Shown: positions 1-47,165, counted from the stretch's first letter. The stretch is 64,000 nt of DNA from Planctomycetota bacterium (GCA_029259725.1 JAJDER010000013.1:8623-72622), one strand, 5' to 3'. Made by a program: numbers and translations. The notes: generated by a model not told the origin, from the sequence alone.

Positions 1-305
1 TTGGAGGCTTGGACTTCGGTGTCTACGGGACCGGGGCTCCGGGCCTGAGCCTGGGCTTGCTGCTCGTCGGCCGCCCGCTTCCCCTCCCCCTCGTCGCGCA
101 AGGTGTGTCCGTCTGGGTCGACCCGACGCAGCCGATCGTTTTGTCCGTCTGGAGCGATGAAGCCGGCTACGCAGAGCTGCCGCTGCCGCTCGCCGACGAC
201 CCGCGCCTGCTGGACCTCGAGGCCGTCGCGCAACTGTTCTGGCCGGAGGCCTGTGGCCGCGGTCTCGTGGCCACGGCCGCCCTGCGGATCCGCGTCCAGC
301 CCTGA
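1..305 (+). CDS. 3' fragment of a gene cut by the window edge; putative secreted-protein tail (divergent copy of the recurrent C-terminal module)
   Basis: The frame is open from the window edge (codon phase of nt 3) to TGA 303-305. The tail ..LPLPLADDPRLLDLEAVAQLFWPE..ATAALRIRVQP resembles the C-terminus of 11339-12907 (..VPNNPGLVGLVVYFQAVHF..SNGIEFTICN). The 'start' at nt 9 in the ORF track is only the first alternative start codon. Confidence 0.45.
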   Translation, partial: GGLDFGVYGTGAPGLSLGLLLVGRPLPLPLVAQGVSVWVDPTQPIVLSVWSDEAGYAELPLPLADDPRLLDLEAVAQLFWPEACGRGLVATAALRIRVQP

Positions 306-360
306 ACGCGCCGGGCGTTGCGCGGTTGGGTTGGCCGCACCCGTGCGCGCTCTGACCGCC

Positions 361-1668
361 TCACCCGCCGGCCACGACCCCCGCCGCCACGGCGCCCCCA
401 ACCACGATCACGGTCAGCGCGATCTTCCACCAGCTGTACGGCGCCTTGCCGACCACGCGACCGGTCTGCCCGTGCACGAGCACCGTGTAGGTCTTCTCGC
501 GGTACCTGTAGGCCAGCGACCAGATCGGCAGCAGCACGTGCTTCCAGTGCACGTCCGAGATCTGGTTGCGCACGGCGAGGCTGCGCTGCGTGTCGCCGGG
601 CACGTCGCCCGAGCAACGGCTGCGCTGCTGTTGCTCGATGCGCGCCTGGCCGCCCACCCAGCCCTGCTCGAGGTCCACCTGGTACTCCTCGGCGCGCCAG
701 CCGGCCAGGTAGTGCGGGCGGTAGGGCACCAGGCCCGAGGTGTCGAAGCTCCCGAGCTTCTGCAGCAGGTCCGCGTCGAGCCCCTTGCTGGCGGGCACGA
801 GCAGATCGTCGTAGACGTCGTCGCGCTCGCCCCAGGCGGGGACCCAGCGCACCTTCCGCACCCGGCGCGTGCGCGTGACCATGCGCCCGTTCACCCGGGT
901 GATGTAGGTCTGGTTGACGTAGTAGTAGTACCCGGCGTCGGCGGTCCAGTCGCTGTGCACGCTCGCGTCGAAGGTCCAGTAGGGCACGTAGACGCCCACC
1001 GAATCGAAGCGCTTGGTGTCCTTGAGGTCGTTCGGCCGGAACCAGAGTCCGCCGATCCACTTGGCGAACGCGGTCTCCACGCCGCCCTTGCCGATGTCCA
1101 GCGGGATCAGGGACTCGGGGCGGATCGCGTTGCGGTTGGCCTCCTGGCTGAGCACCGACGAGCTGCCGCAGTAGACGCAGCTCTTCGCGGTGGTCACCTC
1201 CTCGTGGGCGACGCGCGCGCCGCAGGTGTCGCACTGGAGCACGCGCAGGTCCACGCCCAGTCCGCGCGCGGCGGTGCCGGCCTCCGACAGCGGGCGCTCC
1301 AGGATCGTGCCCTCGCCCCGGTCGACGGCGCGCACGTGGCCGCAGTATTGACAGTGCATGGCGTCCTCGTCGGGATGCCACCGCATGCGCGCGCCGCAGT
1401 TGTCGCAGGGGAAGACCTCGCGGTCGCTCTCCTCGCGCATCAGCGCGTCGACCTCGGGGTTCTCGTCGAGGATCTCGGCCACGGCCGCGTCGCCCTTCAA
1501 GCGGGGCGCGTCGAGGGGCTCGTCCACGAACCCGCCAGCGCCGTGGCCGGTGTCCGCCGTGCCCTGCTCCGTCTCGCCGAGCATGCCGGGCGACGCGGAT
1601 CCCGTGCTCGACGGGCCGGTCTCGCGGCGCGGATCTCCCTCCGGCGTGTGGCTGATGATGTCGGCCAT
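361..1668 (-). CDS. Double zinc-ribbon protein with C-terminal membrane anchor (uncharacterised family)
   Basis: 435 aa. ATG 1668 is preceded by GGGAG. Two CxxC-x14-CxxC ribbons (CDNC..CQYC, CDTC..CVYC). C-terminal TM segment WWKIALTVIVVGGAVAAGVVAGG. Protein-like composition, unlike the overlapping Arg/Ala-rich ORFs 103-1851 and 167-1381. Confidence 0.75.
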   Translation of the reverse strand: MADIISHTPEGDPRRETGPSSTGSASPGMLGETEQGTADTGHGAGGFVDEPLDAPRLKGDAAVAEILDENPEVDALMREESDREVFPCDNCGARMRWHPDEDAMHCQYCGHVRAVDRGEGTILERPLSEAGTAARGLGVDLRVLQCDTCGARVAHEEVTTAKSCVYCGSSSVLSQEANRNAIRPESLIPLDIGKGGVETAFAKWIGGLWFRPNDLKDTKRFDSVGVYVPYWTFDASVHSDWTADAGYYYYVNQTYITRVNGRMVTRTRRVRKVRWVPAWGERDDVYDDLLVPASKGLDADLLQKLGSFDTSGLVPYRPHYLAGWRAEEYQVDLEQGWVGGQARIEQQQRSRCSGDVPGDTQRSLAVRNQISDVHWKHVLLPIWSLAYRYREKTYTVLVHGQTGRVVGKAPYSWWKIALTVIVVGGAVAAGVVAGG

Positions 1669-8386: not shown

Positions 8387-8518
8387 GCAGGCTCCGTCAC
8401 GGGGACACGTCGGCAGGGAGTATGCCAGAGGGGCAGCGGACTCCGCAGTCGAGGTGAAGGCCGGCGCGCTATCATCCGGCGCCCGCGACGGCCGCGGGTC
8501 GCGAAGGCGGGAGGCGCG

Positions 8519-11338: not shown

Positions 11339-12907
11339 ATGACCAGGCTGCGTCTGTTCGCGGCGGCGGTGTGTACTGCCACGCTTGCTGTTCCTTCCTT
11401 CGCCCAGATCTCGCCCGCCCAGGCCCTGCTGGACGACACCGCGGTGCTGACCGCGCTGCGCGTCGGCGAGGCGTCCGTGCAGTCCCTTGAGGTGCCGGAC
11501 ACCGCCGGCCTCGCCTTCATCGTGGACGTGGCCCTCGACGGCGTCGATCACGAGCTGATCCTCTCGCCCTACGAGCTGCGCGGCTCCGGGTACCAGTTGC
11601 TCGTGCAGGGCGCGGACGGCGCGATCGACCTGTTCGAGTCCGGCGCCAACACCACCTACCGCGGCTTCGTCGCCGGTCACGAGGACAGCGTCGTGGCCGG
11701 CTCGCTCTTCAAGGGCCAGCTCACGGCGCTCGTGTCCCTGGGCGATGAGATCTACGGCATCCAGCCCGTGAACGGCGTGCTGCCCGACGCGGCCCCCGAC
11801 CGTCACGTGGTCTACGCCGAGAGCGCGGTCCAGCCCCACAGCGGCCGCTGCGTGGCCCTGCCCAACCCGCTCGCCCAGCCGTCGCCCCCGGTGGCCGGTT
11901 CCCCCGACGGCGGCCCGGCGCCGCTCAAGGTGGTCGAGCTCGCCTGCGACGCGGACGTGCAGTTCTACCAGGACAACGGCAGCTCGGTGTCCGCCACCGA
12001 GGCCGACATCACCAACGTGATCAACGCCATGGGCGCGATCTACCTGGACGACACCGGCGTCATCTACGAGATCACCACGATCATCGTGCGCACGTCCGAG
12101 CCGGACCCGTACACCAGCAGCAGCGCCTTCACGCTGCTCGACCAGTTCGTCGCGGAGTGGACCACCAACCAGGCGGCGATCCCGCGCGACCACGCGCAGC
12201 TCTTCACCGGACGCAACATCGACGGCGGCATCATCGGCATCGCGTACCTCGACGTGATCTGCAACTTCGGCTTCGGCTACGGTCTGGTCGAGTCGAACTT
12301 CACCAATGACTTCACGACGCGCGTGGGCCTCTCGGCGCACGAGGCCGGCCACAACTGGGGCGCGGGCCACTGCGACGGCCAGGGTGACTGCAAGATCATG
12401 TGCTCGTTCATCGGCGGTTGCGCGGGGGACGTGACCTCGTTCGGCAACAGCTCGATCAACGCGATCACCTCGACCAAGAACAGCGCGCCGTGCCTCTCCG
12501 ACCCGGTCGGTCCGGGTTGCGGTCCGGTCTCCTTCGGCGACGGCAACGACACGACGCTGACGGGGACCGGCACCGGCTCCATCGGTGACGCGGTCACGCT
12601 GACCTACTCGGACCCGTCGGTGGCGCCCAGCAACGCGTTCGTCGTCGTGGCGGGGAGTCAGGGCAACCAGCCCTTCGGCGGCGTGGGCACGCTGTTCTTC
12701 ACCCCGGCGTCGATCCTGTTCTTCACGGCGGGCGTGAGCTTCGGCAGCACCGGTGACACACCCAGCGAGGTGATCAACGTGCCCAACAACCCCGGGCTCG
12801 TCGGGCTCGTGGTCTACTTCCAGGCGGTGCACTTCAACGGCGTGTTCGGGGGCCCCGGCACGATCACCGAACTCAGCAACGGCATCGAGTTCACCATCTG
12901 CAACTGA
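11339..12907 (+). CDS. Secreted metzincin zinc metalloprotease (reprolysin/M12B-like) with divergent shared C-terminal module
   Basis: ATG 11339. Signal peptide MTRLRLFAAAVCTATLAVPSFA|Q. Extended zinc motif HEAGHNWGAGHCDG (HExxHxxGxxH) followed by the Met-turn candidate KIMC. C-terminal ~90 aa beta module. Confidence 0.8.
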   Translation: MTRLRLFAAAVCTATLAVPSFAQISPAQALLDDTAVLTALRVGEASVQSLEVPDTAGLAFIVDVALDGVDHELILSPYELRGSGYQLLVQGADGAIDLFESGANTTYRGFVAGHEDSVVAGSLFKGQLTALVSLGDEIYGIQPVNGVLPDAAPDRHVVYAESAVQPHSGRCVALPNPLAQPSPPVAGSPDGGPAPLKVVELACDADVQFYQDNGSSVSATEADITNVINAMGAIYLDDTGVIYEITTIIVRTSEPDPYTSSSAFTLLDQFVAEWTTNQAAIPRDHAQLFTGRNIDGGIIGIAYLDVICNFGFGYGLVESNFTNDFTTRVGLSAHEAGHNWGAGHCDGQGDCKIMCSFIGGCAGDVTSFGNSSINAITSTKNSAPCLSDPVGPGCGPVSFGDGNDTTLTGTGTGSIGDAVTLTYSDPSVAPSNAFVVVAGSQGNQPFGGVGTLFFTPASILFFTAGVSFGSTGDTPSEVINVPNNPGLVGLVVYFQAVHFNGVFGGPGTITELSNGIEFTICN

Positions 12908-13006: not shown

Positions 13007-15343
13007 TCAGTCCGAGGCCGTGACTGCCACCGCGTTGCTGGCGATGAAGCCGGCCGGTCCGCCGGGGTCGCGGATCCAGGCCTGCAGCACGAGCTGGAAG
13101 CCCACCGGCACGCCTCCGGGCGCGAGCGCCGCGAGGGCCAGGTGCCCGTCCGGCCCGGTGGGCAGCGCGGGGACGAAGGCGAGCGGCGCGGGGACGAGGC
13201 GGCCGCCGCGGAATGGTGCGCGCGCGATCTCGGCGCCGATGATGAGCGTGGCCGTGGTGTCCGCGGGCGCGTCGCCGAGCAGGATCAGGAGCGGTTCATC
13301 GAAGACGAGGCGGCCGCGGCCGCGGAGCGTGGGCGCTCGGCCGTCCGCGCCGGGCAGGGCGTCGCCCAGGTCGGTCCAGGCGTCGTCGGGCAGGGCCAGG
13401 AACACCGACAACTGCTCGGCGGCGAACCGACCGAGCACGCGTTCGGTCGCGCCGTCGCCATCGACATCGAGGATCGCGAGCCGCAGGCCGCCGAACGCGG
13501 GCGGCGGGGCCGGGCGCCCGGTCGCGGCGTCCGGCGAGAGCGGGGTTGCCGAGAGCGGGGTTGCCGACAGCCGGGTTGCCGACAGTGGCGTTGCGGACAG
13601 TGGCGTTGCGGACATCGGCGCGGGCGACATCGATGCTGGCAACGAGGCCGGTGGCCGGAACGCGTCCAGCTCCTCCGGCGACGCGAGCCTCTCCAGTCCG
13701 GCCCAGGCGCGCGGCGTCGAGACCCAGATCTCGATCGGCGGCCCGCACCGCGACGCGCGCCAGAGATCGAGCGCGAGCCGGTCCGGGCAATCCGGGAGGA
13801 AGAGCCGCCCGACGGGACCTCCGGCCAGCGTTCCGTAGGGCCTGAAGCCGAGGGCGTGCAGGTTCATCGCGTCGAGCTGGGTGCGTGACCAGCGGGCGCC
13901 GGTGCTGCGCATGAAGACCTCGGCGCCGCCGTCCCTTAGGGCCCGTCGCGGATCGAAGGGGCCCTGGCTCCACTGCGCGAGGTCGCCGTAGGGCGGGAAC
14001 TCGCGCACGCCGTGCTTGAACCGCGTCCGGTCCACGACGAGGCGATCCTCGAGGGCGACGGGGTGCTCCGGCGTGGCGAGCGCCGCCGCCAGGGCCGCTG
14101 CCGAGAAGCGCGTGTCGGCGCTGTCGAGCAGGCTCAGGTAGCGCATCGACCCGGCCAACGGCAGGAGCACGAGCACGACCGCGGCGGAGGTGGCCACCGC
14201 GCGCGGACGCAGGCTGAGTGCCGCGGCGGCGGCCAGCGGGGCGACGAAGGGCAACACGGCCACGGCGTAGCGCACCTTGGCGCCGAGCAACATGCCCATC
14301 ACCACGACGATGACGGCCGGGAAGATCAGGTAGGCGACCGCGTCGCGAGCGCGGAGCGGCCCGCGGCGACGGGTGAGCATCCCCAGGCCGAGCAGCGCGA
14401 ACGCGAAGGCCGCCGGCGCGGCGCTGAACCAGGACAGGGCCACGTCCGGCAGCTCGGCGAAGAAGCGTTGCAGGAAACCGAGTTCGAGCAGCTTGGTCAG
14501 CAGGCCGAGGGAGCTGTTGTCCTCGGCCGCGCTGGTCGGCAGGGCCCGGACCCAGGCCGGGTTCCGCGCCAGGCCGTCCAGCAGCGCGAGCGTCGCGGTG
14601 AACGTGACGGCGTAGACGGCCGCGAGGGTGAGCGCGCGCCGCCACGGTCGCACCAGCAGCAGCATCGACACGAGCGCGGCGCCGGCCAGCAACAGTCCGA
14701 GCTGGAACAGGGCCGCCACCGCCCCGGCGCCGACCCCGGCGAGGAGTGCGCGCCTCGGTGTCGCCCCGTGGTCGTGGAGCACCACTTGCAGCCACGGCAC
14801 GGCGGCGAAGACCAGCAGCGTGGTGACCGGCACGTGCGGCCGGACCTGGTGCGCGTGCAACACCAGCAGGGGCGCGACGGCCACCATCGCCGCGGCGAGC
14901 AGCGCGGCACGGCGGTCCAAGGTCACGCGCGCGAGCAGGTAGACCGCCAGCGGGAGCAGCGCGCCGAGCAGCCCGCCGTAGATGCGGCCGAGGGCGTGGT
15001 GGCGGGTCGGATCGGCGAGGCTGTCCAGCCACGCGGGCCAGCTCGCCGCGTCCGCATCCCCGATCAGCCGCCCGACCGCGTAGGCCACGACATCCGTCGC
15101 CGCGTACAGGTACACCTGCGCCGCGGGGTAGATGCTCTCGTCCGCGAACCAGCCCTGCCGCAACAGGTCCACGGCCTGCTCCGCCTGCACGTAGTCGCTG
15201 TGCAGCGGGTGGGGCAGATAGGCATCGACGTGCCAGAGTCGCAGCAACGCGGCGAGGAGCACGAGCGCCACGAGCACCAGGCGCACCCGGCGCGCCGGTG
15301 GTACCGCGGGTGGAGTCGGCGTGAGCGAGGCGGAGTCGGCCAT
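13007..15343 (-). CDS. Polytopic GT-C-type glycosyltransferase-like protein (family 39/ArnT/PMT_2-like) fused to a repeat linker and the shared C-terminal module
   Basis: ATG 15343. About 450 aa with >=10 hydrophobic helices and an N-terminal pattern typical of GT39-like enzymes (LLAALLRLWHVDAYLP..SDYVQAEQAVDLL). A soluble ~300-aa C-terminal part contains (SATPL)n and ends APFRGGRLVPAPL..VPVGFQLVLQAWIRDPGGPAGFIASNAVAVTASD. Confidence 0.65.
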   Translation of the reverse strand: MADSASLTPTPPAVPPARRVRLVLVALVLLAALLRLWHVDAYLPHPLHSDYVQAEQAVDLLRQGWFADESIYPAAQVYLYAATDVVAYAVGRLIGDADAASWPAWLDSLADPTRHHALGRIYGGLLGALLPLAVYLLARVTLDRRAALLAAAMVAVAPLLVLHAHQVRPHVPVTTLLVFAAVPWLQVVLHDHGATPRRALLAGVGAGAVAALFQLGLLLAGAALVSMLLLVRPWRRALTLAAVYAVTFTATLALLDGLARNPAWVRALPTSAAEDNSSLGLLTKLLELGFLQRFFAELPDVALSWFSAAPAAFAFALLGLGMLTRRRGPLRARDAVAYLIFPAVIVVVMGMLLGAKVRYAVAVLPFVAPLAAAAALSLRPRAVATSAAVVLVLLPLAGSMRYLSLLDSADTRFSAAALAAALATPEHPVALEDRLVVDRTRFKHGVREFPPYGDLAQWSQGPFDPRRALRDGGAEVFMRSTGARWSRTQLDAMNLHALGFRPYGTLAGGPVGRLFLPDCPDRLALDLWRASRCGPPIEIWVSTPRAWAGLERLASPEELDAFRPPASLPASMSPAPMSATPLSATPLSATRLSATPLSATPLSPDAATGRPAPPPAFGGLRLAILDVDGDGATERVLGRFAAEQLSVFLALPDDAWTDLGDALPGADGRAPTLRGRGRLVFDEPLLILLGDAPADTTATLIIGAEIARAPFRGGRLVPAPLAFVPALPTGPDGHLALAALAPGGVPVGFQLVLQAWIRDPGGPAGFIASNAVAVTASD
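13536..13640 (-). repeat. In-frame 15-bp tandem repeat (~7 decaying units) encoding (L/M-S-A-T-P)n linker in the GT-C gene
   Basis: The plus strand reads gagagcggggttgcc x2, gacagccgggttgcc, gacagtggcgttgcg x2, gacatcggcgcgggc, gacatcgatgctggc. The protein reads ASMSPAPMSATPLSATPLSATRLSATPLSATPLSP. Confidence 0.9.
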
Positions 15344-17259: not shown

Positions 17260-19419
17260 TCAGGGCGTGGTCGCGCGCAGGGCCCCGGTGGCGGCCAGGC
17301 CGTGCGGCGCGGCGAAGTCGGGCGCCCAGCCCTGGAACCACAGCGAGATGCCCGAGGGCACGCCTGAGGGCCAGATCGTGGGCAGCACGACCTGCCCGAG
17401 CCCGTTGGTCGGCAGGCCGACGACGAGGTCGGGCGCGGGCACGAGCACGCCGCCCTTGAACGGCGCGTTCACGTCGGAGAATCCGACCACCAGGGAGAGC
17501 GTGGAGAAGGGGAAGGTGTCGCACGCGGCGAGGCGCAGGTCCGAGAGCGGCTCGAGCGTGCCCGACCCGGAGAGCTTCGGCGCGAAGAGACCGGGCAGGC
17601 CGTTGCCGAGTTCGGTCCACGGATCGTGGTCGACGTGCTCGAGCCGGAAGGTGTCCAGGATCACGCCGGTCGCATCGAGGAACGACACGTCGAGCTGCCG
17701 GTCGTCCACGTCGAGCACCAGCGAGCCCAGGGTGAGCAGGCTGGTGACCATGACGGGGTGGTTGAGCGGTCCCTCGTCGGTGAGCTTGCCCGAGCTGCCG
17801 GCCACGGCGTAGACGGTGCCGTTGTGCGGGCCGACGGGCGTGCGGTAGGCGCCGTCGCCGGCCGGGTCGCCGTCGCCGTCGTCCACGACCATGCACGGCT
17901 CGAAGGTGAAGCCGCCCTCGTAGTGACCGTCGATGAGCATCGACCGCTCATAGCTGTGGCTGTGCCCGTTGAGCACCAGGTCCACGCCGTGATCCTCGAG
18001 CAGCGGCAGGATGTTCTCGCGCATGTCGATCAGGTCGTCTTCCAGGTCGCTGTCGTGGCTGCCCTTGCTGTACGGCGGGTGGTGCCAGTAGGCGACGATC
18101 CACTCCTGCGTGGTGGCCAGCAGATCGGCCTCGGCCCAGCTCCACATGACGCCGCCGGGCGCGCTGCTGCTGCCCTCGCTGTCGAGGCACAGGAAGTGCA
18201 CGTTGCCCCAGTCGAACGAGTAGTAGCTCTCGGTGTTGCTGGCGACGCCGCCGGCCTCGCCCAGCGTCGGCAGCGTGAACAGCGTCCAGTAGGTGAACAG
18301 GCTGTCGTCGTGGTTGCCGCGGGTGGGCCACGCGGGGGAGGCCTGCAGCACGTCGGCGTACTGGTCGAAGAGCGCCGACTCGTACTCGGCGTCGCTGCCC
18401 GCGTCGTAGGCGTTGTCGCCGAGCATCAGCCAGAAGTCGGGGACGCCGCCGTTGAAGGCCAGGAAGGCGTCGCGCACCGACGCGGCCAGCGAGTCGGAGC
18501 TGCCCGAGTCCCCGACGACCCACACGCGGAAGGGGTCGGTGCTGCCGATCGGCGGCGCCGTGGTGAAGGTGTGCGCGACATCGCCGCCCTCGAAGACGTG
18601 GGTCGGCGTGCCGATGTCGTAGTAGTACTGCGTGGCGGGCGACAGGCCGGTGAGCGTGATCTCGTGGTCGAAGGTGTCGACGTTGTCGTCGACCGTGTTG
18701 GTCAGCGAGCCGGGGGCGGCGCCCCAGCGCAGCCGCCCGAGGGTCTGGCTGTCGGTGCGCCAGCGGAGCGTGACCGCGTCGGGGCGCGTGCGCTGGAGGT
18801 AGGGCCCGCGGATCACGATCTCGTTCTCGGCCATGGTCAGCTCCAGGTCGAAGCTGATGTCCGAGCTGTCCGGCGCGCGCTGGTGCACTTCGGCGGCGAG
18901 CGTGTTCGTGCCGGTCACGAGCAGCGCAGGGTCCACGCTGAAGATGACCACCACGTCCTCCTCGCTGCCGTTCGCGGTCGAGGTCGCGAGGCTCAGGTAG
19001 TCCACGCCGAGGGCCGCCATCTCCGAGCGCGCGATCTCGGTGCCGTTGAGGTAGACGATGGCGCCGTCGTCGCGCACCAGCTCCAGCCGGCCGTTGGTGT
19101 AGGGCGACGGGTCGGCGACCTCGAAGGTCGTGCGGAAGTAGGTGGTTGGGAACTTGTCGGTGGAGCTGGGACCGAAGCCGACCTCGGTGGCCTCGTCGCC
19201 GTCGCCGTAGCCGAGGTGCGCCGGCCCGCTGAGCCAGACCGAATCGTCGAAGCCGGGGAGGATCCAGGCGGTGCCCTGATCGCTGCCGTCGTCGAGGTAC
19301 TTCCAGGTCGAGTGTCGCGGGAGCACCACGTCGGTGAGCGTGGTCTGCGCGGCGGGCGCGGGGACGAGCAGCGCGAGCAGCGCGACGCAGGGGAGCGGGA
19401 GCAACACGGTGCGGATCAC
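17260..19419 (-). CDS. Secreted purple-acid-phosphatase-like metallophosphoesterase with N-terminal lectin-like domain and shared C-terminal module
   Basis: GTG 19419 (GGAG 7 nt upstream) overlaps the upstream stop (GTGA). Signal peptide VIRTVLLPLPCVALLALLVPAPAAQ. Metallophosphatase motifs GDSG, GDNAY, GNHD, HHPPYS and GHSHSYER. C-terminal APFKGGVLVPAPD..WPSGVPSGISLWFQGW..ALRATTP. Confidence 0.85.
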   Translation of the reverse strand: MIRTVLLPLPCVALLALLVPAPAAQTTLTDVVLPRHSTWKYLDDGSDQGTAWILPGFDDSVWLSGPAHLGYGDGDEATEVGFGPSSTDKFPTTYFRTTFEVADPSPYTNGRLELVRDDGAIVYLNGTEIARSEMAALGVDYLSLATSTANGSEEDVVVIFSVDPALLVTGTNTLAAEVHQRAPDSSDISFDLELTMAENEIVIRGPYLQRTRPDAVTLRWRTDSQTLGRLRWGAAPGSLTNTVDDNVDTFDHEITLTGLSPATQYYYDIGTPTHVFEGGDVAHTFTTAPPIGSTDPFRVWVVGDSGSSDSLAASVRDAFLAFNGGVPDFWLMLGDNAYDAGSDAEYESALFDQYADVLQASPAWPTRGNHDDSLFTYWTLFTLPTLGEAGGVASNTESYYSFDWGNVHFLCLDSEGSSSAPGGVMWSWAEADLLATTQEWIVAYWHHPPYSKGSHDSDLEDDLIDMRENILPLLEDHGVDLVLNGHSHSYERSMLIDGHYEGGFTFEPCMVVDDGDGDPAGDGAYRTPVGPHNGTVYAVAGSSGKLTDEGPLNHPVMVTSLLTLGSLVLDVDDRQLDVSFLDATGVILDTFRLEHVDHDPWTELGNGLPGLFAPKLSGSGTLEPLSDLRLAACDTFPFSTLSLVVGFSDVNAPFKGGVLVPAPDLVVGLPTNGLGQVVLPTIWPSGVPSGISLWFQGWAPDFAAPHGLAATGALRATTP

Positions 19420-24000: not shown

Positions 24001-26076
24001 ATGCGCCAGATCGCTCTCGCACTCGTGCCCGTGTTCCTGCTCGCGTCGGTTGTCCCATCGCACGCGCAGTTCACCGACCTGCAGCCCGGCCCCAACTTCG
24101 CGCCGCCCACGCATGAGTTCGGCAAGAACCGTTCCGAGAACATCGACGTCGGCGATGTGGACAACGATGGCGACCTCGACGTGATCGTCGCCAACGGCGG
24201 CGACTTCGGCAACGAGCCCAACCGCATCTTCATCAACGCGGGCGGACTCCAGGGCGGGACCGTCGGCGTGTTCAACGAGGAGACCGCGACGCGTTTCGCA
24301 GGCGTGCCCGACGACGCGAGTCGCGACATCGACTTCGCGGACATCGACGGTGACGGCGATCTCGACGTCTTCGTGGCCAACCGGGGTCACAACAGCGCCG
24401 GGCAGGTCAGCCGCTTCTACGTGAACCAGGGTGGGCTCCAGGCGGGTGCACTCGGGTTCTTTGGCGAGGACACGAACAACCGTTGGGGCGCGCTGCTGGA
24501 CGTTCCGCAAGCTGACCAGGTGTTCGGAGGCGACGCCGGTCCCTGGGAGGACTGGTCCTGCGAGTGTGAGTTCGCCGACCTCGACAACGACGGCGACCTG
24601 GACCTCTTCCACAGCTCGTACGGGCCCTCGATGAATGGGAGCCGACCGAGTCGCATCTTCCTCAACGACGGGGCCGGGGTCTTCGACGAGCTGTTTCCGT
24701 GGGTGGACCCCGGCGCCGACATCATGCTGCACACACGGGAGCTGGCGCTGATGGACCTGGACGGCGACTTCGATCTCGACATCGTCAACGCGAGTCGCGA
24801 CAGCCAGGCCCGCATCTTCATCAGCAACCTCTACAGCCCGACGACCGGCTCGACGCAGCTCTACACGGACACGACGGAAGCGTCGCTCTTCGCGACGGGA
24901 TCGACCGCAAGCGGATTCTCCAACTACGAGACCGAGGTCGCGGACTTCGACGGCGACGGCGACTTCGACGCCTGGATGGGCGACTACTTCGGGGACTATC
25001 GCGACAAGATCCTCCTGAACAAGGGCCTCGATGCGAACGGGGCCGTGGTGTTCCAGGAGTCGAACGGTCCCGGGCCCGTCCTGATCCACGGCGATCCCTT
25101 CAGCCTCGACTTGGAGGTGAACGCCATCGACTTCGATGGAGACGGTGACCTGGACGTGATGGCCGCGAACTTCAGCGGCACGAACCATGTCTACGTGGGT
25201 GGGAACGCGCAGGGCTTGGCGGGCCAGTACCACAACACGACCGGGCAGGGGACCAGCCTCTATCCGCAGATCGAGACTCCGGGCTTTGGGAACAGCGGGA
25301 CGGCGAGGGACGGTGAAGCCGGCGACCTCGACAACGACGGTGACACCGACTACCTGATCGCGAATGACGCCAACCAGGACAACGACCGCTGGGACAACGT
25401 CCTGGGCGTCCCCGACACCCACGCCCCCGAGGCGCTGGACGAGCGCATCGCGGTCGGTCTCGCGGTCGGGTCCGGCGGCGGCGTCGTGGTCAACGTGCAG
25501 CTGCGCGACAACGCCCCGAGCGATCTGATCCGCCTCTACGACGTCGTGCTCGTGCACCAGCCGGGCGACGTCTCCGTCGACATGTTCAGCCAGGGCAGCC
25601 AGCAGTTCCGCGCCGAGATCCCCGCGAGCGCGACCAGCTTCGTGATCCACGCGACGGACCTGGCCGGCAACATCGGCATCTCGAACGTGCAGGACCTCGG
25701 CGGTGCGTTCACGGAACTCGGGTGCGCCGACGCCGGGGTGACGGGAGCCCCGCTCTTCTCGGGGGCCGGCCCGCTCACGGCGGGCTCGGCGGCGAGCTTG
25801 CTCCTGTCGAGCGCCGCACCCTCCGCGCCGGCGATGTTCTTCGTCGCGTTCGGCCCGGGTGGAGCCGGCGCACCGTTCAAGGGAGGCACGCTCAAGGCGG
25901 TGCCGGTGCTGTTCGGGGTCGCGCTCACGACCGACGCCACCGGCAGCGCGGCCATCCCGTTCGTCACGCCGGGCGGTCTCAGCGGTGGCAGCGTGGTCGG
26001 CCAGTGGGCCATCAGCGACGCCGTGGCCAGCGCGAACGCGTCGCTGAGCAACGCGCTGCAGTTCGGCTTCCCGTAG
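24001..26076 (+). CDS. Secreted FG-GAP/VCBS-repeat (integrin-alpha-like beta-propeller) protein with shared C-terminal module
   Basis: ATG 24001 (GGAGGGA upstream). Signal peptide MRQIALALVPVFLLASVVPSHA|Q. At least 7 Ca-binding-type repeats (DVDNDGDLD, DIDGDGDLD, DLDNDGDLD, DLDGDFDLD, DFDGDGDFD, DFDGDGDLD, DLDNDGDTD). C-terminal APFKGGTLKAVPV..SLSNALQFGFP. Confidence 0.85.
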   Translation: MRQIALALVPVFLLASVVPSHAQFTDLQPGPNFAPPTHEFGKNRSENIDVGDVDNDGDLDVIVANGGDFGNEPNRIFINAGGLQGGTVGVFNEETATRFAGVPDDASRDIDFADIDGDGDLDVFVANRGHNSAGQVSRFYVNQGGLQAGALGFFGEDTNNRWGALLDVPQADQVFGGDAGPWEDWSCECEFADLDNDGDLDLFHSSYGPSMNGSRPSRIFLNDGAGVFDELFPWVDPGADIMLHTRELALMDLDGDFDLDIVNASRDSQARIFISNLYSPTTGSTQLYTDTTEASLFATGSTASGFSNYETEVADFDGDGDFDAWMGDYFGDYRDKILLNKGLDANGAVVFQESNGPGPVLIHGDPFSLDLEVNAIDFDGDGDLDVMAANFSGTNHVYVGGNAQGLAGQYHNTTGQGTSLYPQIETPGFGNSGTARDGEAGDLDNDGDTDYLIANDANQDNDRWDNVLGVPDTHAPEALDERIAVGLAVGSGGGVVVNVQLRDNAPSDLIRLYDVVLVHQPGDVSVDMFSQGSQQFRAEIPASATSFVIHATDLAGNIGISNVQDLGGAFTELGCADAGVTGAPLFSGAGPLTAGSAASLLLSSAAPSAPAMFFVAFGPGGAGAPFKGGTLKAVPVLFGVALTTDATGSAAIPFVTPGGLSGGSVVGQWAISDAVASANASLSNALQFGFP

Positions 26077-26694: not shown

Positions 26695-28527
26695 TCACGG
26701 CGTCGTGCCGCTCAGCGCGTTGCTCGCCGCGAAGCCCGCCGGGCCCGTCGCGTCGGCGATCCACACCTGGTAGTGGAGCGTCAGCGCGGCCGGCACGCCG
26801 GACGGCCAGGGGGCCGAGAGTTGCCAGCCACCGGCGGCGTCCGTCATCAGGCCGCCGACGACGATGTCCGGCGACGGGGTCAGGATGCCGCCCTTGAACG
26901 GCAGCGCGGCCACCGAGGACCCGATCACCATCCAGGCGGCGCTCGACGCCGCGGCGGACGCGAGCGCGAAGTTCACCGGGTCGTCGGCCAGCAGCGTGCC
27001 GTCCGCTCCGAGCACGGGCTCGCCGGTCGCGCCCGCCAGCGCGTTGCCGAGGTCGACCCAGGGATCCAGCCCGGCCGCGAAACGCAGCTTGTGCACCCGG
27101 CCGATGCCGCCACCGTCGTAGATGACGACGCAGTGGACGTCACCCGTGACGGGGTGGCTCTCCAGCGCGACGAGGAAGCCCAGGCCCGACGCGAAGTCCT
27201 GCGCCGCCGTCGCCGATCCGCCGGCGAACTCGACCGTCTTGATCCAGCCGCCGGTCCAGTCGCCGATGAACAGGCGGCCGTCGTGCTCCGCCGGATAGCT
27301 GCCGCCCGGATAGAACGTCCCGCCCACCGCGCAGGATCCGACGAAACCGTTGCCCGGCGCGCCGTTGGTGTCGAGGTGGACGCCGGCCGGCTTCAGGTCC
27401 GAGGCCTGGAAGTGGTGCCACGCGAGTGCCGGGTTCGTCGGCGTGCCTGCCTGCGCCGTGTTGCAGTTGGGGAAGGTCGGGCCCGGCGGGTTGAAGCCCT
27501 GGTAGGACCCGACCTGCGCGAAGCCTTCCTGGCACGGCCAGCCGAAGTTCTCGCCGCCCTGGCAGAGGTTGAGCTCCTCGCGCAGGAACCAGCCCACGTC
27601 GCCGATGGCGAGCACGTCCGAGCTGCCGTCCAGCGTGCCGGCCGGCGCGAGCGCCACGCGGAACGGGTTGCGCAGGCCCAGCGCCCACACACGGCTCGGG
27701 TTGCTGGCCGGGTCCCCGTCGTAGAACGGATTGCCCGGCAGGCCGAGTCCGGTCGCGGGATCGATGCGCAGCACCTTGCCGGCCATGCTCTCGAGCTGCT
27801 GCGAGCGGAACGCGCCGGCGTCCTGCGCGGCGGGTGTCGGCCCCTTCTGGCCCGAGACCGGGTGCACGAAGTCGTCGAAGCCGGCGTCGTCGTTCCCGCC
27901 ATTGTCGGTCAGGTCCCAGTGCGCGCCGTCGCCGGCGGTGACGAACAGCGTGCCGTCCGACGCGAAGATCAACGAACCGTTGCTGTGGCTGTTGTGCAGC
28001 GAGGCGATCGCGTCCGGGACGGCGCCGTCCGGCAGTGGGTGCCCGATGAGCACCTCACGGCTGGCGAGGTCCGCGACGAGCTGGCCGGCGGACAGCGTCG
28101 CCTTGTAGCGCGCGAGGCGCGAGAAGCCGAACGAGTTCGAGGGCCCGTAGGCCGGGTCGTTGCCCGGCTGCGACGACACCGGGTAGAGCAGGTAGACCCA
28201 GCTCGTGGCTCCGTCGTCCGCCGCCCACCCGGGATGGAAGGCCAAGCCGAGCAGGCCGCGATCCCAGTCGCTGTTGATCTCGGTGGACAGGTCGATGAAC
28301 GGCAGCGGCTGCACCGCGCTGCCGTCGTGCACCAGGACGACGCCGCCCTTCTGCAGGATCAGCATGGTGCCGTCCGGCGCGAACTTCATCCCGGTGGGAT
28401 CGTCGAACGCGCCGGGCACGGGCACGAGTTCGAACCCCGGGGGAAGCGTCTGGGCACTCGCCGGTACGTCGAGACCGCAGACGGCGGCGAGCATGAGCAC
28501 GAGCGACAAGCTGCTGGCGCGGAACAT
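26695..28527 (-). CDS. Secreted PQQ-dependent sugar dehydrogenase-like beta-propeller (glucose/sorbosone dehydrogenase family) with shared C-terminal module
   Basis: ATG 28527 (GGGAGGA upstream). Signal peptide MFRASSLSLVLMLAAVCGLDVPASA|Q. GSDH-family blocks (LPPGFELVPV..FDDPTGMKFAPDG, DRGLLGLAFHP, HNGGSL-like HSNGSLIFASDGTLFV, GLRNPFR, GKVLRIDP). C-terminal LPFKGGILTPSPD..SNALSGTTP. Confidence 0.8.
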   Translation of the reverse strand: MFRASSLSLVLMLAAVCGLDVPASAQTLPPGFELVPVPGAFDDPTGMKFAPDGTMLILQKGGVVLVHDGSAVQPLPFIDLSTEINSDWDRGLLGLAFHPGWAADDGATSWVYLLYPVSSQPGNDPAYGPSNSFGFSRLARYKATLSAGQLVADLASREVLIGHPLPDGAVPDAIASLHNSHSNGSLIFASDGTLFVTAGDGAHWDLTDNGGNDDAGFDDFVHPVSGQKGPTPAAQDAGAFRSQQLESMAGKVLRIDPATGLGLPGNPFYDGDPASNPSRVWALGLRNPFRVALAPAGTLDGSSDVLAIGDVGWFLREELNLCQGGENFGWPCQEGFAQVGSYQGFNPPGPTFPNCNTAQAGTPTNPALAWHHFQASDLKPAGVHLDTNGAPGNGFVGSCAVGGTFYPGGSYPAEHDGRLFIGDWTGGWIKTVEFAGGSATAAQDFASGLGFLVALESHPVTGDVHCVVIYDGGGIGRVHKLRFAAGLDPWVDLGNALAGATGEPVLGADGTLLADDPVNFALASAAASSAAWMVIGSSVAALPFKGGILTPSPDIVVGGLMTDAAGGWQLSAPWPSGVPAALTLHYQVWIADATGPAGFAASNALSGTTP

Positions 28528-37577: not shown

Positions 37578-37592
37578 GGTCGTCTCCCCGTG

Positions 37593-39574: not shown

Positions 39575-39729
39575 GCGGCCATCGTAGAGAACGCCCCCGG
39601 CAGTGTCGTGAGCGCGCGGGACGGCCCGCCGAGACCCGGCGACGGCGAACCGCTAGTATCCTGAACCGTGATCCGTGGGCCCCCGCGGCCCGCGCACGCT
39701 TCTCCGGCCCTCCGGACCCTGCTCCCGCC

Positions 39730-40779: not shown

Positions 40780-40798
40780 GCGCGGCGGGGGAGCCCAC

Positions 40799-41476
40799 AT
40801 GGACACGGACGCCCGCCCCCCCGACCCCACTCCCGCGGACCCGCCGCCCCCTGACCCGGACGACGAGTCGGTCACGCGTCACCTCGCCCGCGGTGCCCAG
40901 GCCGGCGACGAGGCGCGCTTCTCCGCGCTGTGCGAACGCCTCGCCCCGGCGCTCTACGGCTGGTCGGTGCTGCGCATCCCGCCCGAGCTGCGCGCGCGCC
41001 TGCAGCCCGAGGACCTGATGCAGGACGTGTGGCTGCGCGCGTTGTCGGCCTTCGGGAGCTACGACGCCGATCGCGGACCGCTGCGCCCGTGGTTGTTCCA
41101 GGTGGCCAAGTACACGCTGCTCGATGCGCTGCGTCGAGGGCGCGTGCGCGTGCAGCCGCGCCAGGAGCCCGCGCCCGACGGAGGTTCGGACGCCGGCGGC
41201 GGCGCGCGGCTCTCCCAGGTTCCCGACGACGCCACCGCGGTCAGCCAGCGCGTGGCCCGCCGCGACGACGTGGCCGCGTTCCTCGCGCACGTCGAGACCC
41301 TGCCCGAGGAGGACCGCGACCTGCTCGTGCACCACGGACTCGAGGGTCTCAGCCTGGGCCAGGCCGCCGAGCGCCTCGGTCTGGAGAAGGCCGCCGCGCA
41401 GAAGCGCTGGCAACGATTGCGCGCGCGGCTTGCGGAGCACGGCTGGCCCGAGGGCATGTTCGAGCCGGGCGCATGA
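40799..41476 (+). CDS. ECF-type sigma-70 family factor
   Basis: ATG 40799 (GGGGGAG upstream). Pro-rich N-terminus. Region 2 PEDLMQDVWLRALSAFGSYD..LRPWLFQVAKYTLLDALRR. Region 4 LLVHHGLEGLSLGQAAERLGLEKAAAQKRWQRL. Confidence 0.8.
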   Translation: MDTDARPPDPTPADPPPPDPDDESVTRHLARGAQAGDEARFSALCERLAPALYGWSVLRIPPELRARLQPEDLMQDVWLRALSAFGSYDADRGPLRPWLFQVAKYTLLDALRRGRVRVQPRQEPAPDGGSDAGGGARLSQVPDDATAVSQRVARRDDVAAFLAHVETLPEEDRDLLVHHGLEGLSLGQAAERLGLEKAAAQKRWQRLRARLAEHGWPEGMFEPGA

Positions 41477-44400: not shown

Positions 44401-45131
44401 CCGGCTTCGTGAGCGGCGTGCAGCGCCCGGGCGGCACGTTCGAACACGGCCAGCAGGCGACGCACGCCGACGGGATCGCCCGGACCGCAGACGACGCCGC
44501 CCGGCGTGTCCGCGGCGACGGTCGATCCGGGGCCTCCGCCCGCGATGCTGGTGGATGCTGGCGTCGAAGACTCGGTCGCCGAATCCGCCGCCGGGTGGTG
44601 ACCCTGCTGGGCGCGTCGGGCACGCTTGACGAGTTCGGCGAGGGTCTCGCCCTCGACCGCGCGCATGGCCACCCAGGGCGGGTCCGCATGCAGGTCGGCG
44701 CGATGCACGGCGCACAGCCCCGGGTGGTCGAGTCGTGCGACGATCTCGACTTCTCGCCGCAGCCGTGCACGCCGCGCGCTCGACAGGACGCCGGCCGGCG
44801 TGCGGATGATCTTGAGCGCCACGTCACGTCCGAGGGCCGTCTCTCGCGCCAGGTACACGGTGCCCTGGCCACCGCGGCCCAGTTCGCGCTCGATCGTGAA
44901 CCCGGGAATCTCCGGCGGCGTCGGAGGCTCGATGTCGGCGCTCTCCGGGAACATCGACGCGCTCTCGGCCGCGAGCAGCCGCACGTGCTCGGCGGCCACG
45001 TCGTCCTCGTATCCGGGGAAGCGCGCGAGGTAGTCCTGCAGCGTGCGCTGCCGCCCTTCGCGCCGGTCCCTCAGGAACAGCTCGACGAAGTCGAAGACGT
45101 GCGACGCCGTGTCGAGTTCGGCGGGATCCAC
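41490..45131 (-). CDS. Ser/Thr protein kinase - TM - WD40 beta-propeller protein (1213 aa)
   Basis: GRGGQGTVY, VALK, HRDVKPANLM, DFGLA, GTPAYMSPE. TM segment ALAMSGLLLVVVLGIGLGVTLALL. At least 12 WD40-type repeats (DGTARLW, DGTVAMHD, DRVVRIHD, DGAVRLWD, DRSIRVWD, DGTARVWP ..). Confidence 0.9.
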   Translation of the reverse strand: MDPAELDTASHVFDFVELFLRDRREGRQRTLQDYLARFPGYEDDVAAEHVRLLAAESASMFPESADIEPPTPPEIPGFTIERELGRGGQGTVYLARETALGRDVALKIIRTPAGVLSSARRARLRREVEIVARLDHPGLCAVHRADLHADPPWVAMRAVEGETLAELVKRARRAQQGHHPAADSATESSTPASTSIAGGGPGSTVAADTPGGVVCGPGDPVGVRRLLAVFERAARALHAAHEAGVIHRDVKPANLMVDQRGEPVILDFGLARPTEDGTPTLTRSGEAFGTPAYMSPEQILGDGRELDARTDVYSLAVTLYECLTLQRPFSGSGNRLEQAICNEEPVSPARLSPAAPADLVVVLAVAMDKDRQRRYGNALELAEDLRRVRLYEPITARRSGPLVHLRRWVQRNPALAMSGLLLVVVLGIGLGVTLALLADVRTESDEKEQALSRARGQAIANLAMIVAEDNPTAALTMALEAASLSPGFESNNALLAALQRSRLEHRIKVRGSPGRGMDLSLFGERMLVCRNGLNLYDLASGESVFSLEFSGARKADLDPTGSWIVTGDESGVVRLHRASTGDVAFEYEAHEDSVRDVAFAPDGEHFATAGNDGTARLWTSGGDGLGLLLSDHLGAVSDVLFDETGDLLVTISGTPGSDDAPATAGAGLWSVPEGTLLASFGGHADLITTAAFAPDGTRLATASRDGTVAMHDLSDGTTRFVLEHTGIVHSVTFDPTGTRIVTTCDPGDITTPHPSPSSVWDAHTGERLIELPDQGSRAVYCADYSPDGSRLATGSYDRVVRIHDAVTGELVEVLRGSSGMIFGVHWTGDGTRLISQGGDSWADVWYLPDRPGLLELRGHTGPVRDVAFAPDGRSVLTASSDGTARLWNTADGSPRATLDHQSRVVAGVYVDGGASVTTASADGAVRLWDTSTGAPRPPARSHDAEVTVLSASPDGRWLLSGDLAGGLLLRDASTGAVRRELTGHGADIACVAWTPDSRLVVTGASDRSIRVWDTASGDARHVLERWAETAVSHAQHTIYDVDVSADGQVLVAVSQDTKIRWWNLDDGSLLAEQPTTTLGTVRFTGRGREVLVTARWNPTVLLQDPASNNIYNSAGHHSDRTTTLDRQPGGDLYVTASYDGSALIWEPRDKRFIVRLTGHEGPVHRARFSPDGRFVVTAGQDGTARVWPVDLVSVARERAAIDELPDWVDAYGR

Positions 45132-45290
45132 GGGCTCACCTTATGCGGGCCGGGGCGGGGGCGCCATCGAGGCCGATCGAGAGTGCGGGGGACAAGAGGC
45201 CCCCGGGCCCATCGTCGGACCCGGGGGCTCCCCCACGAGACCGCCGGGAAGCTCGGGGGCTCCGGGCGGGGAACAGAAGCACGTCGAGCG

Positions 45291-47165
45291 TCAGGGTGCC
45301 GTGATCTGCAGCGTGTTGCTGAGCCACACACCCTGCGGCGCGAGCGCGTCGGCCACCGCCGACTGCATGAACAGCTCGAAGCCGGCGGGGATGCCCGCGG
45401 GCCACAGGTACGGCAGGTCGATCGAACCTTCGGCGTTGGTGAACAGACCGACCTGGAGCAGCACCGGCACGGGCGCGAGCTCGCCGCCCTTGAACGGCAC
45501 CGGGTCGTACGTCAGGCCGATGAACAGGACGGCCGTGCTCAGTGGCGGCGAGTCGCGCAGCATGAGCAAAGCCGGCGCGGTGGGCAGGACCAGCGGCCCG
45601 CCGCCCGACAAGGGCTCCTTGATCAGCGTGACGTGGCCGACGTAGTTGCCCTTGTTCTTGTCGCCCTTGTTCGTGTACGGTGTGGGTTCGTCGGTCGTGG
45701 CCGTGATGAACATCTCCGGGATGCCTTCGCAGGTGAAGGTCAGGCCCGGGCGGTCGCTCACCTGCGCCGAGTCGAGCGCCGGTGCCAGCAGACGCAGCTC
45801 ATCGATGGTGTGGGCCGTGGGACCGACGGTGAACGTCGTGGGCTGCGAGAACTGCACCGCGATGCCGGTGCTGCCCGGATCGGAGTGTCCGCCTCCGGTC
45901 GTGCGGTATTCCCAGCAGTGCGAGACGTCGAAGAACGAGTCGATGCCGTACGGGCCACCGAAGCTCGGATCGCCGGTGACCACGACGCTGCCGGCCACGC
46001 AGCCTTCGTAGTACCAGATCGTGCCGAGCATCTTGGGATCGCAGCCGAAGTCGATCGAGGCCGGCAGGCCCGGCCCGTTGTCCGTGGCCGTGATCGTGGC
46101 GAAGTCCTCGTGCAGCTCGCCGCCGACGATCGCCTGGCCGCTCACGGTGAGCGTGGGGGGCGCGCCCGCGCCGCCGCCTCCGCTGCCGGGCGGATCCACG
46201 GCGACCGAGCCGCTTTGGATGTGTGTGCCGTGGTCACCGCCGAGATCGACCGAGAAGCCGTCGCAGCCGGACGAGCCCAGGTTGCTGATCTTGAGCTTGC
46301 CGCCCTGCTTCTCGACCCGCGCGTCGTCGGTGCCGGTCACGCTGGCACCGAGCGCCATCTGACCGAGGTGCACGATCGACACGTCGCCGGTGTCGCCGAA
46401 CATGAGCTCCATGCGGGTCACGACCACGTCGCCGGTCGCGCCGACGGGAAGCAGCTCGATCAGGTCGCAGGCGGGGATCGGATCGGGGCCGCCGCCCGGC
46501 CCGCTGATGCCGACGATCTCGAAGACCGGGAAGAATCCCAGGCAGCAGTACACCGGCTCGTCGGTGTCGATGCCTTCGACGTAGTAGATGTACTTGGGGC
46601 CGAAGGGCAGGATGATGTCGTCGTCGTCCGGGTCGAGCACGGCCGGGTAGAGGTACGGCGTGGCCGCGTCGAAGGCGCGGAAGGTGTAGCCGGTCGCCCC
46701 GATCGGTGAGTAGTCCGCGCTGACCAGGGCCACCGCGCCGTGGACCGGGTCGAAGGCCTGCTCGACGGAGAGGGTGCCGAGCAGCTGGGACACGCCACCG
46801 TCCACCGTGCCGTAGACCTTGCCGGTCATGGTCGCGCCCGGTGCACCGAGCGGGAACGCTTCCTCGAGTTCCAGCTCGACACCGTCGGTGCCTTCGCCGA
46901 GATCGATGCTGAACCCGTCGCATCCGGACGAGCCGAGGTTGCTGATGATCAGCTTGTTCTTGCCTTCGGGCGTGAGCCCCTCGGTGAGCACGGCGTTGTC
47001 GATCGACGCCGCGTCGATGCCGAAGATGCGCACGGGCGGCGGCGGCGTGCCGTCGGCCTGGGCTGCGGTGGGCGCGCCGAGGGCGCAGGTCAGGGCTGCA
47101 GCGAGGCCACAGGCCGCGAACGTGTGGTGCCGGCGTGGGGCCGGGTCGGAACGGTGGATCCGCAT
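45291..47165 (-). CDS. Secreted Cys-containing orphan protein (624 aa) with an internal duplicated motif and shared C-terminal module
   Basis: ATG 47165 (GGAGGA upstream). The signal region is RRHHTFAACGLAAALTCALGAPTAAQA. Duplicated K(L)xISNLGSSGCDGFS[IV]DLG. C-terminal VPFKGGELAPVPV..WPAGIPAGFELFMQ..SNTLQITAP. Confidence 0.65.
   Translation of the reverse strand: MRIHRSDPAPRRHHTFAACGLAAALTCALGAPTAAQADGTPPPPVRIFGIDAASIDNAVLTEGLTPEGKNKLIISNLGSSGCDGFSIDLGEGTDGVELELEEAFPLGAPGATMTGKVYGTVDGGVSQLLGTLSVEQAFDPVHGAVALVSADYSPIGATGYTFRAFDAATPYLYPAVLDPDDDDIILPFGPKYIYYVEGIDTDEPVYCCLGFFPVFEIVGISGPGGGPDPIPACDLIELLPVGATGDVVVTRMELMFGDTGDVSIVHLGQMALGASVTGTDDARVEKQGGKLKISNLGSSGCDGFSVDLGGDHGTHIQSGSVAVDPPGSGGGGAGAPPTLTVSGQAIVGGELHEDFATITATDNGPGLPASIDFGCDPKMLGTIWYYEGCVAGSVVVTGDPSFGGPYGIDSFFDVSHCWEYRTTGGGHSDPGSTGIAVQFSQPTTFTVGPTAHTIDELRLLAPALDSAQVSDRPGLTFTCEGIPEMFITATTDEPTPYTNKGDKNKGNYVGHVTLIKEPLSGGGPLVLPTAPALLMLRDSPPLSTAVLFIGLTYDPVPFKGGELAPVPVLLQVGLFTNAEGSIDLPYLWPAGIPAGFELFMQSAVADALAPQGVWLSNTLQITAP

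Follow-up and report, generated by a model that had tools for sequence, protein, structure and literature searches.

The marking of exported proteins with a C-terminal beta-sandwich is a known concept. Cargo of the T9SS (type IX secretion system) carries a C-terminal domain (CTD; PF18962/TIGR04183, Por_Secre_tail) of about 70-100 amino acids (aa) with seven strands; the machinery comprises SprA/Sov, PorV, PorU and GldKLMN, and after transport the CTD is cleaved and the cargo is joined to anionic lipopolysaccharide. Type I dockerins, calcium-binding helical modules of about 60-70 aa with a duplicated F-hand, are single-copy, usually C-terminal handles that tie diverse enzymes to a common partner, and the short sorting signals of the LPXTG/sortase, PEP-CTERM/exosortase and GlyGly-CTERM/rhombosortase systems consist of a motif, a transmembrane (TM) helix and a basic tail. 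In Planctomycetota, where protein sorting and retention at the unusual envelope are poorly understood, searches of domain libraries and of the literature revealed no large-domain C-terminal tag like the T9SS CTD. Here we analyse a stretch of 64,000 nucleotides from a Planctomycetota bacterium (GCA_029259725.1, JAJDER010000013.1:8623-72622), which at its full length is called the window, and a C-terminal domain, called the tail, that is shared by otherwise unrelated proteins encoded in it. The domain family is undescribed in Pfam, NCBIfam, PDB, BFVD and the literature searched. While the concept of such a tag is known, an unrelated fold in Planctomycetota, accompanied by a habit of glutamine at position +1 after the signal peptide (Gln+1), is new.

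Like the T9SS CTD, the tail is a beta-sandwich that closes many unrelated signal-peptide proteins per genome at their extreme C-terminus. It differs from it in size and strand number (about 122 aa, 11 strands), and also in its rare N-terminal copies and in one copy on an inner-membrane enzyme. CTD models matched neither the window proteins nor 53 tails at E<=10, no T9SS CTD was among 50 listed PDB hits of a Foldseek search, and a real T9SS CTD aligned to the family profile with an hhalign probability of 0.07%. Given this lack of similarity between the real CTD and the family profile, the relation is one of analogy, not homology. Like the type I dockerin, the tail occurs once, usually at the C-terminus, on diverse enzymes; however, it is all-beta without a Dockerin_1 match, and no cohesin-like partner was found for it. 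With the short sorting signals it shares the character of a lineage-specific, multi-copy C-terminal mark on exported proteins, and one member has a 'choice-of-anchor C' passenger, a domain defined by its pairing with alternative anchors. In contrast to these signals, the tail is a folded 122-aa domain ending in ...SNAL-x-x-T-P, and no NCBIfam CTERM model matched the window proteins or the 53 tails. Carbohydrate-binding modules (CBMs) and ML domains are likewise Ig-like/E-set beta-sandwiches with stand-alone secreted forms, and they are among the weak top Foldseek neighbours, including Der p 2; yet all fold matches were non-significant, no profile matched, and the tail is strictly terminal and never tandem. 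Outer-membrane beta-barrel or autotransporter C-terminal domains, which have at least 8 long amphipathic strands and an aromatic beta-signal at the C-terminus, differ from the tail, whose strands span 3-9 residues and whose C-termini are T-P, A-S or similar instead of aromatic. For anchors of the S-layer homology (SLH) type, we propose the tail as a functional analogue and not as a homologue.

The tail domain and its copies in the window

The window has a GC content of 70-74% and contains many spurious open reading frames (ORFs); genes were therefore picked by codon-position GC. A first-pass annotation made from the sequence had described seven envelope or secreted proteins of the window as ending with an unnamed module of 70-90 aa. 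To avoid circularity, a family hidden Markov model (HMM) was built from 48 non-window (metagenomic) sequences only and run on the six-frame translation of the window. With this outside-only HMM, five tails were detected where they had been claimed (E from 1e-27 to 3e-41, Table 1), and beyond them no other match with E <1e-3 was obtained in the six frames. The ORF translations gave the previously quoted tail sequences exactly, each with a stop codon directly at its end, and the domain ends 0-2 residues before the stop codon in all five proteins, as expected from the claim that it occupies the extreme C-terminus. The length, by contrast, had to be corrected. When the five clear proteins were aligned over their C-terminal 125 residues, similarity began about 40 residues upstream of the earlier boundaries, in a W-x-D-L-G-x-x-L-A-G...G-x-P-x-L-x-G-x-G-x-L block, and the conserved unit comprises about 120-125 aa (about 122). 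The first strand with W-x-D-L-G is lacking in the tail of the 624-aa orphan protein, where the match begins at HMM position 21.

The count of seven was upheld in part: five copies are certain, the one on the metzincin is probable and the one on the edge fragment is unproven. Taken alone, the metzincin tail scored poorly with the HMM (Table 1) and gave an hhalign E of 8e-4; a homologue search with this tail alone returned no relatives. The same odd tail is, however, common to the window metzincin and its orthologue at locus L082 in the metagenome-assembled genome (MAG) OFTM221, and the two together aligned colinearly with the outside profile over 88 columns (hhalign probability 83%, E 1e-5). 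More distant reprolysin relatives at loci L032 and L094 have canonical tails at the same position (E 4e-18 and 5e-21). From the tail shared with OFTM221, the canonical tails of these relatives and the paired hhalign match, the metzincin tail is probably a diverged family member. The edge fragment lies in the right register, yet its match is non-significant (hhalign E 0.38; HMM value in Table 1), and its membership is unproven. Searches of the loci by jackhmmer with either the metzincin tail or the edge fragment were uninformative and returned no relatives of the edge fragment.

An AlphaFold2 model of the tail of the GSDH protein (125 residues, 53-sequence alignment) reached a pLDDT of 96.9 and a pTM of 0.89. 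The model is all-beta and consists of 11 short strands, each of 3-9 residues, packed as a sandwich, so that the tail, at about 122 residues, is predicted to be an all-beta domain in its own right with an 11-strand sandwich fold. Foldseek searches with the model against PDB gave nothing at E<=1e-3 (best E 3e-3, TM-score 0.42; neighbours at TM-scores of 0.36-0.52); the weak neighbours were NPC2, MD-1 and Der p 2 (ML lipid-binding domains), CBM56, CBM21, FN3 and generic Ig-like sandwiches. Nothing better appeared in BFVD (best E 4e-3), where weak similarity to galactose-binding and FN3-like viral domains was found, and a profile search of PDB sequences gave no match below E 1. No model of Pfam-A (2025) or NCBIfam 20.0 (2026) lies on the tail in the window proteins or in 91 full-length members, and none matched the 53 tails at E<=10. 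Available source names of the members are 'hypothetical protein' or derived from the passenger only, and literature searches for the motif and for planctomycetal C-terminal sorting domains revealed nothing relevant. The earlier statement that the module belongs to no named family thus holds across Pfam, NCBIfam, PDB sequences, PDB folds and BFVD, and no confident match to a characterised domain was found in Pfam, NCBIfam or PDB.

The passenger parts of the tagged window proteins are indeed unrelated to each other, as had been noted. Pfam matches were to FG-GAP_3 and FG-GAP in the FG-GAP protein, to GSDH in the dehydrogenase (whose gene call is backed by an exact database match), to Metallophos and Pur_ac_phosph_N in the phosphatase, to PMT_2 in the GT-C enzyme and to Reprolysin in the metzincin; the body of the 624-aa orphan has no match in Pfam or NCBIfam. 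N-termini judged by eye agree with signal peptides on all tagged proteins except the GT-C enzyme, and the tails carry no terminal TM helix, basic patch, LPXTG or PEP motif, again as first described. The GT-C enzyme has about 11 hydrophobic/TM helices. With its basic loops placed in the cytoplasm by the positive-inside rule, its C-terminal 370 residues would be periplasmic, and a periplasmic C-terminal part is usual for GT-C enzymes. Only in the window is a GT-C enzyme fused to a tail, out of 136 hits of the domain there and in 103 loci, and none of 217 database proteins has this fusion. A Pro/Ser/Thr-rich linker (nt 13487-13651, minus strand) lies between the periplasmic part of this enzyme and an FG-GAP-like repeat followed by the tail; it contains five 15-nt repeats coding for PLSAT, with a tandem repeat at 13535-13618.

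Table 1. Tails and possible tails in the window. E values are those of the outside-only HMM; GC3, GC content at third codon positions.
Feature	Position	Strand	Gene	E value	Remark
C-terminal domain of FG-GAP protein	25702..26073	+	~24001-26076	1e-27	ORF residues 604-724
C-terminal domain of GSDH/PQQ-type beta-propeller dehydrogenase	26698..27066	-	26695-28527	3e-41	
C-terminal domain of purple-acid-type metallophosphatase	17263..17628	-	17260-19419	2e-38	
C-terminal domain of 624-aa orphan protein	45294..45656	-	45291-47165	2e-30	
C-terminal domain of GT-C (PMT_2-like) membrane glycosyltransferase	13016..13384	-	~13007-15343	2e-34	
Probable diverged copy, C-terminus of reprolysin-type metzincin	12536..12904	+	~11339-12907	0.003	Tail alone
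3' end of gene cut by window edge, possible remote relative	3..305	+		4.3	GC3 0.87, coding-like

Size, position and export signals of the family

When 1.84 billion cluster representatives (clusters at 50% identity) were searched exhaustively with HMMER, 8,896 matched at E<=1e-3; 5,152 of them reached E<=1e-10 and 2,055 reached E<=1e-30. In the best 150 of the 8,896 representatives, the domain reaches the end of the protein or stops at most 12 residues before it. A word-indexed search yielded 73 short relatives, and a degenerate DNA pattern for PFKGGxLxPxP, which catches three of the five window copies, was found in at least 99 stretches when one genome per GTDB species was searched. Among the matches listed, 97 of the 99 stretches contain the domain; L056 and L075 were discarded as chance pattern matches with no HMM match.

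Carriers among the matches listed are nearly all MAGs of uncultured Planctomycetota, some of them labelled Phycisphaerales, and include OFTM221, OFTM49, HK-STAS-PLAN-21, Co_metawrap_1940, SMAG_U1375, DHS20C15 and SAW251. Ten recurring MAGs hold from at least 3 to at least 16 motif-matched loci each, and the GC content of all carrier loci lies between 64 and 74%. The lineage specificity suspected from the window was thus borne out, the family being nearly confined, among these matches, to uncultured high-GC Planctomycetota. Unnamed lineage-specific domains are common. Naming this family, with its roughly 9,000 representatives, would improve the annotation of thousands of metagenomic proteins, define the exported and probably surface-located proteome of the lineage, and give a handle for finding the partner machinery.

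The MAG JBLIMM01, labelled Pseudohongiellaceae (a gammaproteobacterium), has seven copies on six contigs (L019, L034, L038, L048, L086 and L092) with a GC content of about 64%, and the tagged phosphatase P0257 is named 'Pseudohongiellaceae bacterium' in another source. This looks like a mislabelled or mixed bin and not like a real occurrence outside Planctomycetota. Locus L001 (GCA_037975565.1, JBBCBH010002184.1) shows many very short gene calls, and its protein P0055 is seemingly frameshifted within the domain; the assembly is probably error-rich.

The terminal position holds for almost all copies in the related genomes. Across the 103 loci, 124 of 128 complete copies end at most 7 residues from the stop codon (about 97%), and no ORF carries two copies, so that the domain is never tandem. 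In 246 database proteins all of the 244 complete copies end at most 12 aa from the C-terminus, and 166 extend right to the final residue. Of the 128 complete copies in the loci, just two are placed elsewhere in earnest, on a pair of genes in DHS20C15 described below; two further exceptions look like frameshifts. Passengers belong to 39 Pfam families in 91 members. Beta-propellers (FG-GAP, SBBP, NHL, PD40, GSDH, SGL) predominate, and beta-helix proteins, the PA-IL lectin, phosphatases, nucleases and reprolysin also occur.

Export signals co-occur with the tail in this census as they do in the window. Using a simple heuristic, an N-terminal hydrophobic signal region was recognised in 119 of 160 proteins starting with methionine, and a lipobox-like motif was found in none of 196 such members; tail and lipid anchoring therefore look mutually exclusive. 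A site of the form [AGSTV]-x-[AGS]↓Q, the arrow marking the end of the signal peptide, was present in 60 of the 119 members with a signal-type region, compared to 6.5% of control windows. Glutamine at +1, the 'Q-rule', was reported as specific to Bacteroidetes, and Planctomycetes are not mentioned in that report (PMC5837995); in this habit the signal peptides of the tagged proteins resemble those of Bacteroidetes, the T9SS phylum.

Signal-peptide ends of the type A-x-A↓Q can be read in the window as SHA↓QF (24001-24070, the FG-GAP protein), ASA↓QT (28450-28527), PAA↓QT (19340-19419), TAA↓QA (47050-47165), SFA↓QI (11339-11410) and AVA↓QD (~8300-8392, minus strand), the last of them on an untagged TPR-CHAT protein.

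At the level of sequence, about 14 positions of the tail are near-invariant: W7, G9, G14, P19, L21, G25, F59-K60-G61-G62, G81, Q102, D107, G113 and N118. Their conservation, at a paralogue identity of about 39%, suggests a shared structural or interaction constraint. The orthologue of the window phosphatase in OFTM49 keeps the tail, with 53% identity in the body and 41% in the tail; the fusions are therefore old and stable. Tails are 39.5% identical within genomes and 38.3% between genomes, and the nearest relative is in the same genome for 32 of 113 tails. With these values, concerted evolution of tails within genomes was ruled out.

Retention, sorting or binding as possible functions

The strongest indirect evidence for a role of the tail came from the window phosphatase, which has thousands of homologues, of which the best 120 were examined. 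Twenty of them keep the tail (about 695-750 aa in length, one of 953 aa), and the other 100 have different modules after the catalytic body. In other lineages, homologue P0334 carries a bona fide Por_Secre_tail, the T9SS CTD, at residues 974-1041 of 1042, and P0237 carries Dockerin_1 at residues 781-827 of 834. All three modules begin directly after the conserved D-x-F-T-[IL] end of the phosphatase body. This pattern of a 'choice of anchor' at a single junction argues for the tail as a sorting or anchoring handle.

We therefore tentatively favour, with a probability of about 45%, the reading that the tail is a shared extracytoplasmic handle for retention or sorting at the envelope, analogous but not homologous to the T9SS CTD and the dockerin. 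This reading builds on the combination of traits described above: the domain is terminal, single-copy, present many times per genome, linked to export, free of lipoboxes, attached to unrelated passengers and interchanged with CTD and dockerin. In this lineage many Sec-exported proteins of a genome each bear a single tail at their extreme C-terminal end. The precursor would cross the inner membrane by Sec, its signal peptide would be cleaved, typically at A-x-A↓Q, and passenger and tail would take up their folds once in the periplasm. There a partner common to all of them, which may be an envelope component or a translocon/receptor, would then recognise the tail and retain or display the passenger at the envelope. 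We infer this common partner, its identity and the destination of the tagged proteins. Retention or anchoring would fit better than a cleaved signal, because N-terminal copies, a copy on an inner-membrane enzyme behind a flexible linker and free secreted copies all occur. The first-pass annotation had offered cargo tag, surface anchor and ligand binder side by side as candidate functions; its lineage-specific, unnamed C-terminal module stands.

It seems unlikely that the tail is the address label of an unrecognised sorting or surface-display system with its own receptor or translocon in a deep, uncultured high-GC lineage of Planctomycetota, an independently evolved PVC counterpart of the T9SS/CTD of Bacteroidota that follows a Bacteroidetes-like Gln+1 (pyroglutamate) rule for signal-peptidase I. 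If the partner truly were a dedicated sorting system, tagging of cargo in the CTD style would have been invented independently by organisms that do not belong to the FCB group.

Several observations weigh against a handle for retention or sorting. A partner, receptor or processing enzyme was not found by clustering all coding-like ORFs in the 103 loci, and Pfam scans of the larger likely genes of the window, though not of every ORF, revealed no T9SS, sortase or exosortase genes; the por/T9SS genes had already been noted as missing. The identity of tails within and between genomes is alike and gives no hint that they were homogenised to suit a receptor specific to their genome. In MAG DHS20C15 (L103:1239-6491, BQJR01000003.1), two neighbouring FG-GAP paralogues have the domain at the N-terminus, immediately behind the signal peptide, which means that a free C-terminus is no strict requirement. 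The copy on the inner-membrane GT-C enzyme would not be releasable unless cleaved. There are also stand-alone proteins made of a signal peptide and the domain; in a conserved group of them (P0011, P0012, P0019, P0020, P0028, P0036 and P0046) the mature form is exactly the domain (...VQA↓QWVDLG...), and stand-alone genes adjoin FG-GAP genes. Finally, the weak similarity in fold is to sandwiches that bind lipids or glycans (NPC2/MD-1, CBM56, CBM21; TM-scores of about 0.4-0.5), which would also fit a plain binding module.

A module that simply binds a ligand, as CBMs, lectins or lipid-binding domains do, and that would target the passenger to an external substrate or surface and take no part in sorting or retention, is a strong contender, if less probable than the handle. 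It would agree with the beta-sandwich fold and its weak neighbours, the galactose-binding and FN3-like viral domains included, with the stand-alone secreted copies, and with the tolerance of N-terminal placement and of attachment to an inner-membrane enzyme. The modules of Ig-like, fn3, PKD or Calx-beta type that follow the catalytic domain in many phosphatase homologues of other phyla point the same way, as do the genes for envelope glycopolymers near the window tails (sulfotransferases, Glyphos_transf, GT-C). CBMs, however, are normally not confined to the end of a protein and are often tandem or internal, whereas about 97% of the tails end at most 7 aa from the stop codon and none is tandem. 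Moreover, most passengers are not carbohydrate-active enzymes, and not even a weak profile match to a CBM or lectin was obtained.

A true secretion signal for a dedicated, so far unknown outer-membrane translocon, cleaved after transport like the T9SS CTD, is rather improbable. The strictly C-terminal position, the many copies per genome, the Sec-dependent cargo and the replacement of the tail by a T9SS CTD in a homologous phosphatase would all suit it, and so would the Gln+1 signal peptides, otherwise reported for Bacteroidetes, the T9SS phylum (PMC5837995). Against these stand the difference in size and strand number, the lack of any sequence or profile similarity to Por_Secre_tail, the absence of T9SS genes from the larger likely genes of the window and of any report of a T9SS in Planctomycetota from the literature searched. 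The N-terminal copies and the copy on the integral inner-membrane GT-C enzyme do not fit a cleaved signal either.

Still less probable is a module for self-association, in which tails would bind each other or the stand-alone copies to form a lattice, a fibre or a multi-enzyme coat. The conserved stand-alone group next to FG-GAP genes, the clustering of tail-bearing genes (5-6 within 35 kb of the window) and weak fold matches that include TapA, the anchor of TasA fibres, speak for assembly; these fold matches are non-significant, though. An artefact of chance or of composition in a genome with 71% GC, or the trace of a mobile or repeated stretch of DNA, might be suspected from the high GC content, the many spurious ORFs and the clustering of antisense ORFs of the tail, but it was ruled out by the very confident AlphaFold2 model, the outside-only HMM (E to 1e-41) and the exhaustive search. 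The tails are about 35-45% identical as protein and diverged as DNA, and the relatives number thousands, in which the tail is invariably joined in frame to a passenger and runs up to a stop codon.

Gene neighbourhood of the tagged genes

The largest cluster of tail-less ORFs in the neighbour search (58 ORFs from 52 loci) was rejected as a neighbour family, as its members proved to be nothing but the tail translated from the opposite strand. The second neighbour cluster consists of Ser/Thr kinases, which are abundant in carrier genomes. The window also encodes Ser/Thr kinases with WD40 or TPR, CHAT-TPR proteins, extracytoplasmic function (ECF) sigma factors, CTP synthase and AnmK. The tagged GSDH gene, an ECF sigma gene (28570-29220) and a Ser/Thr kinase gene (29221-31707) lie on the same minus strand without gaps, in an operon-like arrangement, and the same order of the three (26695-31707 in the window) was found at locus L104. 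Next to the tagged orphan gene are another ECF sigma gene, on the plus strand at 40652-41476, and a kinase-WD40 gene on the minus strand at 41490-45140, which flank it.

Interspersed with the tagged genes are two genes for sulfotransferases and genes for a Fe-ADH_2-type dehydrogenase, a CDP-glycerol glycerophosphotransferase and the GT-C enzyme; these glycopolymer-type genes are located at 22813-23892 (plus), 36519-37592 (minus), 38450-39652 (minus), 39730-40779 (plus) and 13007-15343 (minus). Their presence suggests synthesis of an envelope glycopolymer, and one may speculate that its product is a candidate ligand of the tail.

A minus-strand ORF of 2,535 aa (5225-12832) is real only in its 3' third (5225 to about 8392), where it encodes a TPR-CHAT protein with a signal peptide. 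The plus-strand ORF at 5366-7639 was rejected as a gene, as it is the antisense of this TPR-CHAT gene. A second TPR-CHAT gene was found at 33263-36343, and on the plus strand the gene for a spermidine-synthase-like membrane protein begins near 8606.

The Saltatorellus clade was described to have a GC content of about 70% and expanded Ser/Thr kinases (PMC11032199; bioRxiv 10.1101/817700). The high GC content of the window and its kinase expansion recall this clade, to which it may belong. None of the MAG loci retrieved matches the window itself. Its GSDH protein has an exact counterpart in sequencing run SRR15505516, and the OFTM221 orthologue stems from the adjoining run SRR15505515; the window is therefore probably part of a sister MAG of one project, and no paper that mentions these MAGs was found. 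Near the right end of the window, at 61598-63073 on the minus strand, lies a gene for an insertion sequence (IS)-type DDE transposase (DDE_Tnp_1_4, E 2e-152).

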